Shown one piece after another: positions 13,573-24,943 of a DNA stretch of 46,495 nucleotides. The position numbers and the translations under genes were made by a program. The stretch is from NCBI GenBank assembly GCA_042568285.1, contig JBHPIX010000003.1:1-46495 (forward strand), read 5' to 3'. This DNA comes from Patescibacteria group bacterium (GTDB taxonomy: Bacteria; Patescibacteriota; Patescibacteriia; JAZDEU01). Every line of letters starts with the position of its first letter. Positions within the stretch are counted from its first letter, which is position 1. The notes under the pieces were generated by a model. The model worked only from the letters and a program-made list of their open reading frames with translations. It was not told where the DNA came from and did not search any database.

Positions 13573-13763
13573 AAAAATTTAAGTGGTAAATTTATGTAAT
13601 GACAAATTTTATTTATTTGTCATCCCGCAAATCGTAGCAACGATTATGCGGGATCTATTTTTATTTTAATACTGGATTCCGTGTCAAGCACGGAATGACA
13701 AAAGTAAATTTTATTGCATTTTTATACAGCTAAAAATAAATTTTACATTTTGAACTTTGCATT

Positions 13764-14332: not shown

Positions 14333-15727
14333 CTATTTACAAACCAACACCTCCAAACTCTCCCTCCCGCACTTCTCCCAACTAAATTTTTGTGCCTGCT
14401 CTAATCCACCCTTCACCATCGCACATCTTAATTTTTCATCACTTAATAGCTTCAATATACCGTCAGCAATCTCTTTTGGCTCATTAGGATTTACAAACAG
14501 CGCAACGTCAGAAGCCACCTCTCGCAAAGCTGGAATATCCGAAGCTAAAACTGGAACGCCACAAGCCATTGCTTCTAATACAGGTATTCCAAATCCTTCG
14601 TAAAAACTAAGAAAAGTGAACAACTCCGCGCCTGCTAATAAATACGGCAAATCTTCCTGATCTGTCCACCCTAATTCAATTATATCATTTTCAAGCCCTT
14701 TCTCCTTAATAATTTTTTTAACTTTTTCATATCCATATCCCCGCCTGCCTGCTAAAACTAATTTAATTCTATTGACAAATTCTTGTGATATGCTATACTG
14801 TATTTGTGTATCAAACAGTGAAACCTCATCCGTGTTTCGCGGACCAACTAAAACATCTTCACATTCAGTGGGGATGTTTTTATTTTTGGCATCTTCAATT
14901 TTTATGTTATAATAATTTATGTGGCGGTGCGGAGAGTAAAGCGCCTCGGAGGCGCCGCTGTTTGATACACAGACGGTCTGCTTTACAGCGGATGGGGTTC
15001 GACTCCCCTTCTCTCCGCCGCTTTCAGAAAACACTTTCTTATCGGAAGTGTTTTTTGATCTCTTTAACAACCCAAACGCTTCCACCAGCCCCTTAATATT
15101 CTTCTTCTCTTCCAATCTGCCAATGTAAAAAATGTACGGACTATCTATTTTATACTTATCTAAAACCTGCTTAACTTTATTTTTTTCCAGCTGGATATTA
15201 TATTTTTTATCATCATATCCATTATAAACAACTTTTAATTTGTCAGATGAGACTTTAAACAAATCAATTATCTCATTTTTTGTAAATTCAGAAATAACAA
15301 TAATTTTTTTAGCATGTTTTAATGAATACCTGACTGTCCATTTATGATACAAATATGCAGGCAATGAATATAATTTTTTAAATCTTTCAAATCCTACGTC
15401 ATGCCATGTTACCACTGTATTTCTTGCGTAAATCAATGGAATAGAATGGGCTGGTATAAATAAAACATCTGGCTGATTAAAAAGCATTTCTAATGATAAT
15501 CTTCCTTGTGTCCAAAGATACTTAAATGGCCATTTTAAAATTTTGTTCTCCCAATTATCTGGCAGTTTCGCCAAGTCGCCAGACAATGGCTTTTTAGAAT
15601 ACAAAATAATTTTATGTTCAGAATTTTTAGTAATTTTTTTTAATTCTTCTATCAAAAAAAAAGAATACCACTCCGTGCCTGTCTTATTCAGTTTATCAGC
15701 TCTTGAAGCATCTATTCCTATTGTCAT
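14333..15727 (-). CDS. GT4-family glycosyltransferase carrying a 95-codon insertion
   Basis: C-terminal domain reads FLSFYEGFGIPVLEAMACGVPVLASDIPALREV. Residues about 224-319 are encoded by the reverse complement of the RNA module at 14772-15056. Confidence 0.8.
   Translation of the reverse strand: MTIGIDASRADKLNKTGTEWYSFFLIEELKKITKNSEHKIILYSKKPLSGDLAKLPDNWENKILKWPFKYLWTQGRLSLEMLFNQPDVLFIPAHSIPLIYARNTVVTWHDVGFERFKKLYSLPAYLYHKWTVRYSLKHAKKIIVISEFTKNEIIDLFKVSSDKLKVVYNGYDDKKYNIQLEKNKVKQVLDKYKIDSPYIFYIGRLEEKKNIKGLVEAFGLLKRSKNTSDKKVFSESGGEKGSRTPSAVKQTVCVSNSGASEALYSPHRHINYYNIKIEDAKNKNIPTECEDVLVGPRNTDEVSLFDTQIQYSISQEFVNRIKLVLAGRRGYGYEKVKKIIKEKGLENDIIELGWTDQEDLPYLLAGAELFTFLSFYEGFGIPVLEAMACGVPVLASDIPALREVASDVALFVNPNEPKEIADGILKLLSDEKLRCAMVKGGLEQAQKFSWEKCGRESLEVLVCK
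14805..14887 (+). ncRNA. Seed RNA A1 of RNA module copy 1
   Basis: Promoter TTGACA 14772-14777, 16 nt, TATACT 14794-14799. The 5' end TGTGTATCAAACAG (14805-14818) is the reverse complement of 14958-14971 in B1. Terminator is an 11-bp stem AACATCTTCAC/GTGGGGATGTT plus a T-run (14852-14887). Confidence 0.55.
14921..15056 (+). ncRNA. tRNA-like RNA B1 of RNA module copy 1
   Basis: Extended -10 TGtTATAAT at 14905-14913. Closing stem GCGGAGAG/CTCTCCGC (14929-14936 / 15011-15018) can extend by 3 bp after a 2-nt bulge. GC hairpin GCGCC-TCGGA-GGCGC. 7-bp arm CCGCTGT/ACAGCGG. T-arm GGGG-TTCGACT-CCCC at 14994-15008. Terminator AAACACTT/AAGTGTTT plus T-run at 15029-15056. Confidence 0.6.
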
Positions 15728-19739: not shown

Positions 19740-19928
19740 AAGAATATATTTAATTTAGATATATTAAAACTATTTTAGAATTGTTATCCCAAAATTGACA
19801 TACTTTTGTCATCCCGTGCTTGACACGGGATCCACTCTCTAATACTGGATTCCCGCTTTCGCGGGAATGACATAAATGAAAACTCAATTTGATTTCATAT
19901 AAATATATATTACCACATCTTACTCTAC

Positions 19929-20124
19929 TTGACAATTTTAAATGATAGAGTATAATAATTAACAATATGAAAATAATCGCGACAAAAAATTTAGCTCTCA
20001 ATTTAGGTCTATTATTATTGGCTTTATTATTATTGCCTTATGGGATAGCTAAATTGAGTTTATTGCGAAATTAAAACAAAAAGCAATTAAACAAAAATAG
20101 CTGTCCCAAAAGGACAGTTTTTTT
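19929..20124 (+). promoter_or_regulatory. Leucine leader-peptide attenuator upstream of leuA
   Basis: TTGACA 19929-19934, 16 nt, TATAAT 19951-19956. Leader ORF 19967-20074 encodes MKIIATKNLALNLGLLLLALLLLPYGIAKLSLLRN, with 14 Leu in 35 residues. Terminator CTGTCC-caaaa-GGACAG plus T7 at 20101-20124. Alternative pairing is GGGATAGCT (20042-20050) with AGCTGTCCC (20099-20107). Confidence 0.7.
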
Positions 20125-20212
20125 AATTGCGCCAGAAAGGGGAATGCTCTTTGAAAAATAAAAAATTTTAGCCATAAACACTATAAACCATTAAACAAAA
20201 AAGGAGAAAAAA

Positions 20213-21751: not shown

Positions 21752-21828
21752 AAAAAAATTAAGCAAAAAATAAGCCCAGAAAAGTTAAAATACTAACTAA
21801 CTTTCTGGGCTTTCTTATTGAAAAAAGA

Positions 21829-22668
21829 TCAACAGCTTCTCAGATAAGATCCAAGAAACTTTACTTTCGCTAAGCCATTATCTGTTAAATGGCTTATGCA
21901 CTTCAAAAAAGATTCATCTTGATAATGTGCTAGGCAATCAACAAAAAAGATATATTGTCCTATCTGCCCATTTATCCAAGATTCTATCTTTGTCAAATCA
22001 ATACCCTTTTTTGCAAACGGATCTAAAATATTATATAACACTCCTGATTTATTATTTTTAGGATAAAGTAAGATACTTGTCTTATTATGTTTACCTTTAA
22101 TTTGACTCGTAGCTTTACTAATTATTATAAATCTAGTCATGTTATTTTTACTATCCTGAATGTATGAATCTACAAGTTTTAAAGAATACAGTTCTCTTGC
22201 CAATTTAGGCACAATTGCTCCTTGTGTTTTATCATTAGGATAGCGAGCCAAAAGTTCTGCTGATTTAGAATTGCTGCTTGTTTCAATAATCTCCGCTTCA
22301 TTCAAATGTTCCTTTAAAAAATTGCGGCATTGAGCTCTGGTTTGAGGATGACTATATATTATTTTAATATCGCCAATATTCCCCCACCCTGCTAAATGAT
22401 GCTTAACACTTATCACAAGCTCTTCTATAATAAATAAATTTAATTTAAGCAAGGCATTCAATGAATCCCTAACTGAACCTCCCATAGAATTTTCAATAGG
22501 AGTTATGCCTAAAGACGCCTTTCTCTTTTGAACAAGTTCAAAAATATCCATAATGGTTGATGTGAAAATAATTTCATGATTTTCAGAATTCATACCATGA
22601 CTCTTAAAATATTCTAAGGTTGCCTGATGGCTAAAACTTCCCTTTGGTCCTAATGTTGCAATTCGCAT
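21829..22668 (-). CDS. pheA: Prephenate dehydratase with an ACT domain
   Basis: MRIATLGPKGSFSHQA.. is the PDT domain. The C-terminal ACT-like segment reads TSILLYPKNNKSGVLYNILDPFAKKGIDLTKIES. Confidence 0.85.
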   Translation of the reverse strand: MRIATLGPKGSFSHQATLEYFKSHGMNSENHEIIFTSTIMDIFELVQKRKASLGITPIENSMGGSVRDSLNALLKLNLFIIEELVISVKHHLAGWGNIGDIKIIYSHPQTRAQCRNFLKEHLNEAEIIETSSNSKSAELLARYPNDKTQGAIVPKLARELYSLKLVDSYIQDSKNNMTRFIIISKATSQIKGKHNKTSILLYPKNNKSGVLYNILDPFAKKGIDLTKIESWINGQIGQYIFFVDCLAHYQDESFLKCISHLTDNGLAKVKFLGSYLRSC

Positions 22669-22848
22669 TTTAAAATTCCCTCCTCATTTTTAAAAAATAG
22701 AAAAACGCGCAGGGCAAACGAAAATATATAAATTCGTTTGCCCCACAAAATTATGCCATGCCAAACCCTTGTGGCCGATCATTTTGATTTTTTAAATTTT
22801 CAATATTTTTGTATTTTTCAGCGAGTCCACTCTTTTGAGTGATTGGAC

Positions 22849-23697
22849 TTAAACTCTTAAACGTAAAAACGTAAATTTGTCAGATTTTTCATCTTCAAAT
22901 TTTGTTAAATAAGTTGCCGCCACATCAACTGTCCAATTATCATGAACAATACCACTAATCACCTGAACTAATTTTCTAGGATTCTTATGCTGAAAAACAT
23001 TCCTGCCAATTGAAACTCCTGCTCCGCCAGCGTCTAAAGAACCTTTTATCATCTCAAAAATCTCTTTCTCAGTTCCCATCTTCTCGCCTCCTGCTATTAC
23101 AACCGGGACTGCGCATCCTTCTACGACCTCTCTAAAAGTTTCAGATGATCCAGTATAAACAACTTTCACTATATCAGCTCCCAGTTCAGTGGCAATTCTT
23201 GCGGCATGTTTTACATATTTAACATCATATTCCTTTTCAATTTTAGCTCCGCGAGTATACATCATAGCAAGCAGTGGCATGCCCCATTCTTGGCAGGTTT
23301 TACTAACATTACCTAAATCCCTAAGCATCTCTTTTTCATCATCAGACCCAATATTCACATGAATTGAAACTGCGTCAGCTCCTAATCTTATCGCTTCTTC
23401 AACAGAGCATACCAAAACTTTAGCGTTTGGATCAGGCGCGAGACTTGTGCTTACTGAAAGATGAATTATAAGCCCTACATCTTTCCCTCCTTCCCTATGT
23501 CCGGAAGACACTATTCCTTTATGAATAATAATGGCATTGGCTCCTCCTTGAACTACTTCATTGATAGTCTTTTTAATATTTATAAGACCTTTAATTGGTC
23601 CCATAGATGTCCCATGATCCATTGGAATAATAACTGTTTTTCCAGATATACGATTCATAATTCTTTCAAGTCTTATGTTTTTCCCTATTTCAGACAT
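22849..23697 (-). CDS. DhnA-type class I aldolase family protein, probably 2-amino-3,7-dideoxy-D-threo-hept-6-ulosonate (ADH) synthase
   Basis: [74 protein letters not shown]. Co-oriented with pheA and preceded by the aromatic-rich leader. Confidence 0.65.
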
Positions 23698-23932
23698 TTT
23701 GTCCTCCCCAATTTTGTTTTTGTTATTTTTTTTGTCATCCCGTAAATCGTAGAAACGATTATGCGGGATCCAGAATCAAAACGCAAAAATCTTCAATCTG
23801 TCTCTAATCCGTGTAAATTAGTCATACATTCGTAAAAATTAGTGTTCCCCCATCACCCTCCTTTCCTTAGGCGCGAAAAACGCGAAATCTAAAAAATTAA
23901 ATTTTATTTGTCAATGAACATTAATGAACAAA

Positions 23933-24111
23933 CAAAAAACTGATCTCTATTTAGGAGACCAGTTTTTTGTTTTGAATAAATATTTTTTATTCTATACAAA
24001 ATTCCCGATCTCCAAGACCAGTAAAGAAAAAATAAAAGTTAAACCAATTTGTTGACCAAAAATTTTGTTTCATATTAAAAGATAGTATAACATAAAAAAA
24101 ATATTTGTCAA
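23933..24111 (-). promoter_or_regulatory. Aromatic amino-acid leader-peptide attenuator upstream of the aldolase-pheA pair
   Basis: Minus strand: TTGACA (24111-24106), 16 nt, TATACT (24089-24084). Leader ORF 24073-23987 encodes MKQNFWSTNWFNFYFFFTGLGDREFCIE, with 10 aromatic residues in 28. Terminator CTGGTCTC-ctaaata-GAGATCAG plus T-run at 23963-23933. Alternative pairing is GGAGATC (24013-24007) with GGTCTCC (23960-23954). Confidence 0.7.
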
Positions 24112-24141
24112 TAGCACTATGTAACGCCAAGTTATCCACAG

Positions 24142-24319
24142 TTGACATAATAGCTTATTATGCTATTATTAATAATAATATGAATATATCTCAAACCAAA
24201 ACCAATATGTTAGTGGTCGTGGAAGTCGTAGTATCAAACACGATCGGTTTTGGTTTAGAGCAAACATAAAAACATAAAAACAAACAAAACCAAATCCGAT
24301 CGCAAAGATCGGTTTTTTT
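24142..24319 (+). promoter_or_regulatory. Valine-rich leader-peptide attenuator
   Basis: TTGACA 24142-24147, 16 nt, TATTAT 24164-24169. Leader ORF 24180-24269 encodes MNISQTKTNMLVVVEVVVSNTIGFGLEQT. Segment 1 (24192-24203) pairs with segment 2 (24246-24257). Segment 2 extended (24241-24256) pairs with segment 3 (24287-24302) at 15 of 16 positions. Terminator CCGATC-gcaaa-GATCGG plus T7 at 24296-24319. Confidence 0.7.
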
Positions 24320-24444
24320 ATTTAACAGATAAAATAGTTCCATCTTTAAAAAAGAGGGCGGGGGGATTCTAAAATATAGAAAAATTTATAAACAATTTAA
24401 TGTTCTTTAAAACTTAACATCAACCATAATCTTTGGGGGAAACA

Positions 24445-24720
24445 ATGAAACAAAATATTTTAAAACAAATTAATCTATTGCTTGAACTTTACAAAAAACT
24501 TTACAAAAAACCTTTTAAAGTAATGATAGTTACTTTTTGTCAAGATGAAGCGACATCTCCTAAAAAAATTCTCATTTCAAACGGCAAAAAAATACAAGCT
24601 GATCCAAAAAAAATATGGGAATTATCACAAAAAGCTATAAAACCTGAAATGGAAAAAACAACATTGCGAAATTTAGCTAAAAACTTTTGCTACATCCAAA
24701 GAATAACTATTTGGAATTAA
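24445..24720 (+). CDS. Hypothetical 91-aa protein downstream of the Val leader
   Basis: ATG at 24445 after gggggaaaca. Lys-rich. No family recognised. Confidence 0.45.
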   Translation: MKQNILKQINLLLELYKKLYKKPFKVMIVTFCQDEATSPKKILISNGKKIQADPKKIWELSQKAIKPEMEKTTLRNLAKNFCYIQRITIWN

Positions 24721-24803
24721 GGTAAAAATTTCACTAAATGTTAACATTCTATCGCATAAACAAGGGGGGTTGACAAAAAAAATCATTAGTGTATAATAAA
24801 CAA

Positions 24804-24911
24804 CATAAAGGATGAGCAAGGTAATATACTAAAAACTCTACCTTGCTTCATATATATAGAGCCAACAAATTATAAGTATTCAATAAATATAATTTCTTGG
24901 CTCTTTTTTTT
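24804..24911 (+). ncRNA. Candidate small RNA or leader of about 105 nt
   Basis: TTGACA 24770-24775, 16 nt, TATAAT 24792-24797. Hairpin AGCAAGGTA/TACCTTGCT. Then a long terminator, AGAGCCAA-c-AAATTATA ... TATAATTT-c-TTGGCTCT plus T8, at 24858-24911. The only ORF is a 6-codon one. Confidence 0.35.
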
Positions 24912-24943
24912 ATGATAGCCTTGACACCTTCGCACACCAGCCC

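Follow-up and report, generated by a model that had tools for sequence, protein, structure and literature searches.

A candidate aromatic leader-peptide attenuator upstream of aroA'-pheA in a Patescibacteria group genome, and comparable leaders at other bacterial aroA' loci

Background

The Escherichia coli pheL-pheA (Rfam Phe_leader, RF01859) and trpL attenuators are the closest described systems to an element that we report here from the minus strand of contig JBHPIX010000003.1 (positions 1 to 46,495; assembly GCA_042568285.1) of a Patescibacteria group bacterium, where it precedes the genes aroA' and pheA; the whole 46,495 nt stretch was analysed and is called the window below. Common to these systems are a short open reading frame (ORF) in which regulatory aromatic codons are clustered, four RNA segments that can form mutually exclusive 1:2/3:4 and 2:3 structures, and an intrinsic terminator ahead of biosynthetic genes, pheA being among the regulated genes here as it is behind pheL. 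The window leader differs from pheL and trpL in mixing Phe, Trp and Tyr codons in place of a single amino acid, in having no Shine-Dalgarno sequence and being probably leaderless, in a second RNA segment (region 2) that copies nearly the whole terminator stem and is able to tie up both of its arms, and in the first gene under its control, which is aroA' of the aromatic route that is independent of 3-deoxy-D-arabino-heptulosonate 7-phosphate (DAHP). Nor is it a member of the Phe_leader family: a permissive Rfam scan of 23500-24500 returned only sub-threshold noise, in which Phe_leader scored 17.6 bits (E = 5) against a gathering score of 55. The initial annotation of this DNA, made from the sequence without database searches, had called the arrangement enterobacterial-style attenuation; the attenuator anatomy bears this out, but the style is imprecise, there being no Shine-Dalgarno sequence and probably a leaderless mRNA as in Deinococcus (PMC4007540).

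Aromatic and leaderless leader peptides have been described elsewhere. In Corynebacterium glutamicum (PMC11802643, citing Neshat et al. 2014), a leader peptide named aroR (Phe-Tyr-Phe) controls the downstream gene aroF, encoding DAHP synthase, by attenuation. The likeness is that mixed aromatic codons control the enzyme committing carbon to the common aromatic pathway; in the window that enzyme is instead 2-amino-3,7-dideoxy-D-threo-hept-6-ulosonate (ADH) synthase, the aromatic codons of the leader number 10 and Trp is among them, the organism belongs to another lineage, and there is no sequence relationship. A bacterial aroA' operon behind a predicted terminator/antiterminator attenuator is also on record, a putative attenuator of the Desulfovibrio vulgaris aroA'>aroB'>...>trp supraoperon having been tabulated in 2005 (PMC1173090, Table 7). 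That record is a database prediction in which no leader peptide is described, and neither aroB' nor the genes that come after it are part of the window operon. Searching the literature for DVU0460 yielded nothing, and aromatic attenuation is not treated by Rodionov et al. 2004 (PMC545781). In Deinococcus deserti, 14 leaderless leader peptides have been predicted (PMC4007540); there the leader ORF begins at, or a few nucleotides from, the start of transcription and lacks a Shine-Dalgarno sequence. The window leader likewise lacks one and, to judge by promoter geometry only, would probably begin as close to the start of its transcript. The leaderless polycysteine short ORFs of mycobacteria are a related case (10.1101/834739).

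We consider it very probable that the window element is a ribosome-mediated leader-peptide attenuator, sensing charged tRNA-Phe, tRNA-Tyr and tRNA-Trp and controlling an aroA'-pheA operon. Leader-peptide families as attenuators of aroA', their leaderless form in the window lineage, and an aroA'-pheA operon without aroB' appear not to have been described previously.

Leader promoter, leader ORF and terminator

The promoter (24084-24111, minus strand) consists of a -35 box TTGACA (24111-24106), a 16-nt spacer and a -10 box TATACT (24089-24084); it matches 11/12 positions in a consensus scan and has TG at 24092-24091, which makes it an extended -10 promoter. An ATG at 24073, 10 nt past the -10 hexamer, opens an ORF of 28 codons plus a UAA stop (23987-24073) that encodes MKQNFWSTNWFNFYFFFTGLGDREFCIE. 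Ten of the 28 residues are aromatic (7 Phe, 2 Trp and 1 Tyr), so that the promoter, the start position and the aromatic count given in the initial annotation are all present in the sequence and its translation. The regulatory codons (24023-24061) are F W at codons 5-6 and W F N F Y F F F at codons 10-17. When the 409 ORFs of the window that start with ATG and have 12-60 codons, taken over all six frames, are ranked, the run WFNFYFFF, with 7 of 8 residues aromatic, shares the top aromatic density. The ORF is probably translated from a leaderless mRNA, to judge by its position relative to the promoter.

A predicted intrinsic terminator (23930-23972, minus strand; inverted repeat I10, 94% complementary), AAACAAAAAACUGGUCUC / 7-nt loop / GAGAUCAGUUUUUUGUUU, preceded by a short A/U-rich hairpin, follows the leader ORF and comes ahead of the first structural gene. 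Its arms (23972-23955 and 23947-23930) form an 18-bp stem of -21.3 kcal/mol with a U6 run at 23939-23934. The hairpin and U-run proposed in the initial annotation are thus present, and the lone mismatch in the DNA becomes, as it stated, a G-U pair in the minus-strand RNA; the strand specificity contributed by this pair is small in the window (-21.3 vs -19.1 kcal/mol).

Alternative structures and a proposed ribosome-dependent switch

The leader transcript folds at -44.5 kcal/mol, compared with -23.2 +/- 3.4 kcal/mol for dinucleotide shuffles (z = -6.3; 0 of 200 as good), and this unconstrained fold comprises a 1:2 helix and the terminator. Region 1, the anti-antiterminator strand (24054-24068, minus strand; ACAAAAUUUUUGGUC, codons 2-7), forms a 15-bp helix with 23996-24010 in the minimum-energy fold, with a duplex energy of -13.4 kcal/mol, its partner being GAUCGGGAAUUUUGU (codons 22-26), which is part of region 2. 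Region 2 (23996-24022, minus strand) is composed of ACUGGUCUU (24022-24014) and GGAGAUCGGGAAUUUUGU (24013-23996); as a whole, ACUGGUCUUGGAGAUCGGGAAUUUUGU, it is a near-copy of the terminator stem and is able to pair with either terminator arm to give an antiterminator. With the 5' arm the pairing totals -16.9 kcal/mol, GGAGAUCGG...AUUUUGU lying against ACAAAA..CUGGUCUCC as 9 bp (GGAGAUCGG with CUGGUCUCC) and a 6-bp helix (the AUUUUGU region with ACAAAA). The pairing of GGAGATC with GGTCTCC, noticed in the initial annotation, therefore holds in the RNA (GGAGAUC/GGUCUCC) and extends to those 9 bp. Pairing of ACUGGUCUU with the 3' arm GAGAUCAGU amounts to -10.0 kcal/mol.

The presence of a ribosome was modelled by masking the RNA in constrained folds, with an assumed footprint that extends from about 12 nt upstream of the first P-site nucleotide to about 14 nt downstream of it. 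When the A site is placed at codons 6-13, the composite antiterminator has the lowest energy (-31.1 kcal/mol), also with region 4 in the RNA. A stall at codons 14-17 leaves the 2:3 helix (-22.1 kcal/mol) available before region 4 is transcribed. With the ribosome at the stop codon, or with none, the terminator forms. In these models the switch follows the classical trp/phe logic, including 'superattenuation' in the absence of translation.

The mechanism that we propose is as follows. Transcription would start at the leader ATG or a few nucleotides before it, and a ribosome would load on the leaderless or near-leaderless mRNA and trail RNA polymerase. When aromatic aminoacyl-tRNAs are plentiful, the ribosome would reach the UAA stop, where it would either cover the 3' half of region 2 or leave region 2 to region 1, and the 18-bp terminator would form and halt transcription at the U-run. 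When they are scarce, the ribosome would stall in W-F-N-F-Y-F-F-F and cover region 1, leaving region 2 free to pair with the emerging 5' arm of the terminator, and optionally with the 3' arm, allowing read-through into aroA' and pheA.

Conservation in a metagenome locus

Scans of genomes and metagenomes with the protein encoded downstream yielded 104 loci, none with more than 76% identity for AroA', which limits the analysis of fine-scale covariation to a single locus, L044 on metagenome contig Ga0154643_1061, with an AroA' that shares 71% identity with that of the window. Here the leader DNA aligns with 71% identity over 177 nt (blastn, E 7e-17), and the gene order is the same as in the window: leader, terminator, a long spacer (~360 nt in L044), aroA' and a pheA homolog. 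Conservation of the mini-ORF, whose lack the initial annotation had named as refuting, was checked in this way, and a leader homolog is present. The L044 peptide, MQNFMSKNWYGFYFSFTGPLETGSFVLNN, retains the aromatic block and an F-T-G motif. After F-T-G, a 2-nt indel makes the peptide tails differ while the RNA sequence GGAGAyyGGGArUUUUGUAUwGAAUAA is kept between the two loci, indicating selection on the RNA in the 3' half of the leader and on the aromatic codons in the 5' half.

The L044 terminator (CCGGUCUCC/GGGGAUCGG) has a compensatory U-A to C-G change relative to the window and is strongly strand-specific (-15.3 vs -6.8 kcal/mol). The region 1:2 helix is kept at -12.6 kcal/mol, and L044 reproduces all four helices and all three ribosome-dependent folding states. 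Upstream of the -35 box, both loci have a DnaA-box-like 9-mer, TGTGGATAA (24132-24140 on the minus strand of the window, 3271-3279 in L044), with different spacing; it was rejected as an enriched element, the window having 2 exact copies and 16 matches at up to one mismatch, as expected by chance.

Aromatic leaders at other aroA' loci

We surveyed 90 other aroA' loci with at least 200 nt of upstream sequence for sense-strand ORFs within 450 nt upstream that contain at least 6 aromatic (F/W/Y) residues in 8. Such an ORF was found at 27 of them, representing about 23 distinct peptides, compared with 0/90 on the antisense strand and 40/3000 random windows of the same loci. A terminator (a hairpin of -15 to -25 kcal/mol followed by a T-run) stands between ORF and aroA' in all 22 leaders that were checked. 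Leaders lie upstream of the aroA' match at L014, L015, L018, L019, L023, L029, L047, L050, L051, L058, L068-L082 and L100. A short ORF at L002, MKIHFHSWGWPMYFWP (5/8 aromatic), was not counted as a leader, having no hairpin plus T-run.

At least three leader sequence families with GC-rich terminators (GGCCGUGGG...CCCACGGCC) precede aroA'-aroB' operons, some in unclassified metagenome-assembled genomes (MAGs). One, ..W.RYYYFSYYYFTGPECASTFKRP, is found at loci labelled Syntrophales, Thermodesulfobacteriota or Deltaproteobacteria; another, ..LGY.FWYYYYS-stop, has the NC10-labelled locus L029 among its members; and a third, ..FYFYWYFY.., occurs at L023, L066 and L067. None of these families is matched by a model in Rfam 15. 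At the Syntrophales-type loci L014, L015, L018 and L019, the order aroA'-aroB'-aroQ/pheA behind a Tyr/Phe/Trp leader partly matches that of D. vulgaris. Syntrophales-type leaders are unrelated in sequence to the window leader except in the F-T-G/ACUGG motif region, and unlike it they are preceded by a normal Shine-Dalgarno sequence (GUCGAGGA), which lies about 7 nt ahead of the ATG.

The initial annotation had judged an archaeal-type aromatic pathway under attenuation to be an unusual combination. This was overstated, with leaders at 27/90 aroA' loci and the D. vulgaris attenuator listed in 2005; because the latter had already been tabulated (PMC1173090), the combination is neither new nor rare. 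Two linked generalisations, between whose truth and falsity we see an even balance, would be that aromatic leader-peptide attenuators are the usual regulator of the bacterial aroA'-aroB' pathway and that in the lineage of the window leaderless leader peptides serve as a modular device of general use. The former occur in several uncultured and deltaproteobacterial-type lineages. What was found amounts to a regulatory signature of the DAHP-independent route to aromatics in bacteria, and an aromatic leader before a DhnA-family gene is strong contextual evidence for a role in aromatic amino acid synthesis. A new RNA family model could be started from the roughly 23 distinct aroA' leaders and would improve the annotation of MAGs, where such mini-ORFs and terminators currently go unannotated. 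Classical attenuation in leaderless form would, moreover, be heavily used by an uncultured AT-rich lineage without a close sequenced relative. The window leader itself leaves the general understanding of attenuation unchanged.

Downstream genes aroA' and pheA

The first structural gene, aroA' (22849-23697, minus strand), encodes 282 residues behind the Shine-Dalgarno sequence GGGGAGG. Its product scores 383.9 bits against the NCBIfam equivalog TIGR01949 (cut-off 299.45) and 412.8 bits against NF005556. In gap-free alignments it scores 344 bits with the characterised Methanocaldococcus jannaschii enzyme MJ0400 (PDB 2qjg), compared with 131-134 bits for an archaeal class IA fructose-bisphosphate (FBP) aldolase and LsrF (1ojx, 3gkf). 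Residues K178, D27 and Y147 align with Lys184, Asp33 and Tyr153 of MJ0400, which we take to be catalytic. By standard annotation the aldolase homolog is ADH synthase. The initial annotation had reached the same identity by arguing from the aromatic leader; the identity stands on TIGR01949 and MJ0400, and the argument from the leader proves unnecessary, the family models being sufficient. The second gene, pheA (21829-22668, minus strand; 279 aa), encodes a prephenate dehydratase (Pfam PDT; NF008865 at 241 bits, cut-off 219) without a chorismate mutase domain, so that both downstream genes named in the initial annotation, a DhnA-type aldolase homolog and pheA, are recovered by family models.

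The partner enzyme 3-dehydroquinate (DHQ) synthase II, AroB', was not found within the 46.5-kb window by tblastn. A look-up of the exact ADH synthase sequence matched no contig on record. Directly after aroA', aroB' is present in 62 of 73 other loci (its identity confirmed by NF002627 in two), and pheA takes its place in the window and in L044.

Within the 180-nt gap between aroA' and pheA is a 15-bp hairpin (22709-22747, minus strand) with a U-run a few nucleotides distal; it is the main helix of a 101-nt segment (22800-22700) that folds at -29.5 kcal/mol (z = -3.3). A partial terminator and a second control point ahead of pheA are both possible roles for it. Because this stable hairpin separates the two genes, co-transcription of pheA with aroA', which we consider likely, has to be inferred. 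The hairpin overlaps a weakly aromatic 30-codon ORF, MIGHKGLAWHNFVGQTNLYIFVCPARFSIF. The operon is closed by a terminator (21764-21820, minus strand; inverted repeat I17), AGCCCAGAAA...TTTCTGGGCT plus a T-run, located between the convergent genes pheA and leuA.

Alternative explanations

Several observations weigh against ribosome-mediated attenuation at this locus. A search of public sequencing runs for the window DNA gave no match, and attenuation is argued here from sequence and folding. Inspection of the sequence ahead of the leader ATG found no Shine-Dalgarno sequence, so translation of the leader depends on the mRNA being leaderless. At 33% G+C, Phe codons (UUU) are common, and among the 409 short ORFs one other also reaches 7/8 aromatic residues by chance and four reach 6/8; aromatic composition alone is therefore not convincing. 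Downstream of the terminator, a promoter-like TTGACA-17-TAGATT at 23914-23886 (10/12) could be a source of unregulated transcription. A single direct sequence homolog of the leader was found, so that covariation amounts to two sequences. Finally, a ribosome of the usual footprint at the stop codon covers just the 3' part of region 2 (nt 70-78) and not GGAGAUCGG, with the consequence that the amino-acid-replete state leans partly on re-pairing of GGAGAUCGG with region 1 or with ACUGGUC.

The promoter-like site is central to the alternative that survives best, which we nevertheless consider improbable: the mini-ORF with its promoter and terminator would be an independent small gene, for a small aromatic/hydrophobic peptide or a small RNA, and aroA'-pheA would be transcribed from 23914-23886. 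Consistent with this, the site lies past the terminator, a 232-nt spacer (23698-23929, minus strand) separates terminator and aroA', and a related 27-nt TTGACA motif after the terminator of an Ile leader elsewhere in the window (I2) hints at a recurrent post-terminator element. An independent gene sits poorly, however, with the retention in L044 of the RNA and not of the peptide tail, with aromatic codons located exactly where stalling flips the fold, and with the recurrence of aromatic ORFs and terminators before aroA' in unrelated lineages whose peptides differ. The spacer that carries the promoter-like site is also not conserved in L044, apart from a 20-nt blastn match (E 0.48) elsewhere in that locus.

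The spacer has two further features. The 27-nt motif, ATGTTCATTG(A/T)CAA.TAAA, follows both the aromatic terminator (23895-23921, minus strand) and the Ile terminator (25142-25168, plus strand) with an 81% match; it includes the -35 box of what the initial annotation listed as a weak promoter, and could act as a secondary promoter or bind a protein. A palindrome resembling repetitive extragenic palindromic (REP) elements, GGATCCCG...CGGGATGAC, occurs at 23727-23770, 13612-13655 and 37384-37418, and also at 19800-19870, in copies that are 91-93% identical; with one copy (23770-23727) inside the spacer, part of the spacer length is explained. A second conserved RNA element in the spacer was considered and rejected, the best blastn matches being 16-20 nt long (E 0.14-0.48) and part of the region being the dispersed repeat.

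Somewhat less probable again is that the switch is real but is not set by leader translation: an RNA-binding protein, an uncharged tRNA or a metabolite would set it, and the presence of an aromatic ORF would be incidental. Aromatic operons of other lineages are under T-box or TRAP control, and the missing Shine-Dalgarno sequence of the leader ORF would fit a switch that works without translation. Against it, scanning the whole window and 14 related loci with Rfam 15 at gathering score returned only tmRNA genes, in two loci, with no T-box or riboswitch, and the fold has no specifier-loop/T-box architecture. The window has four leaders whose codons are among its most enriched, and three of the four precede a gene of the pathway concerned, which makes a non-translational switch hard to uphold. 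Chance, in the form of a T-rich short ORF beside an ordinary hairpin in an AT-rich intergenic region, is the least probable explanation, for all that the window has 33% G+C and other short ORFs at 7/8 (one) and 6/8 (four) aromatic residues: the z-score of the fold, the E-value of conservation in L044, and the survey's 27/90 sense vs 0/90 antisense leaders all speak against it.

Other candidate leaders in the window

Besides the aromatic leader, the window has Leu, Val and Ile leaders, all four lying within 5.3 kb. The Leu leader (19930-20126, plus strand), upstream of leuA (20213), has a TTGACA...TATAAT promoter, an ORF at 19967-20074 encoding MKIIATKNLALNLGLLLLALLLLPYGIAKLSLLRN, and a terminator GCUGUCC-CAAAA-GGACAG with a U-run at ~20100-20126. 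The Ile leader (24944-25124, plus strand) has a TTGACA-17-TATACT promoter and an ORF at 24982-25071 encoding MNISQGTFIISIIIGAIISLNFNYPLRQQ; it folds at -39.6 kcal/mol (z = -5.8), with a 1:2 helix and a terminator at 25099-25118, and precedes cimA (25228), a citramalate synthase gene (TIGR00977 at 724.6 bits). The Val leader (24142-24720, plus strand) has an ORF at 24180-24269 encoding MNISQTKTNMLVVVEVVVSNTIGFGLEQT and a terminator at 24296-24312 (24296-24319 in a wider delimitation); the sole ORF downstream of it encodes a 95-aa protein (24433-24720) with no family match. These ORFs are the most Leu-, Ile- and Val-rich short ORFs, respectively, of the whole window.

The Val and Ile leaders have in common a -10 box, a start context and the first five codons (MNISQ). 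They are probably paralogous by these sequence features, which suggests duplication and codon replacement as the origin of new specificities. The ATG of each of the four leaders is 9-10 nt past the -10 hexamer, in the context AAUAUGAA and without a Shine-Dalgarno sequence, while structural genes of the window do have one (GGGGAGG, AAGGAG, AAAGGA). From this spacing and the missing Shine-Dalgarno sequence we infer that the leader mRNAs are leaderless or nearly so, and that transcription begins at or close to the ATG.

Two other observations concern the window outside these leaders. ARAGORN reported an 89-nt tRNA-Ile(GAU) at 14931-15019 (plus strand), antisense within a glycosyltransferase ORF (14333-15727), which is probably a false positive. 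At 24770-24912 (plus strand), a perfect sigma-70 promoter (TTGACA-16-TATAAT) is followed by a predicted transcript of ~110 nt with two hairpins, ending in a strong terminator (-32 kcal/mol, z = -7.0). Its sole ORF has 6 codons (MSKVIY) and a start codon buried in the first stem; the element, which matches no Rfam family, may represent a small RNA or a further regulatory leader.

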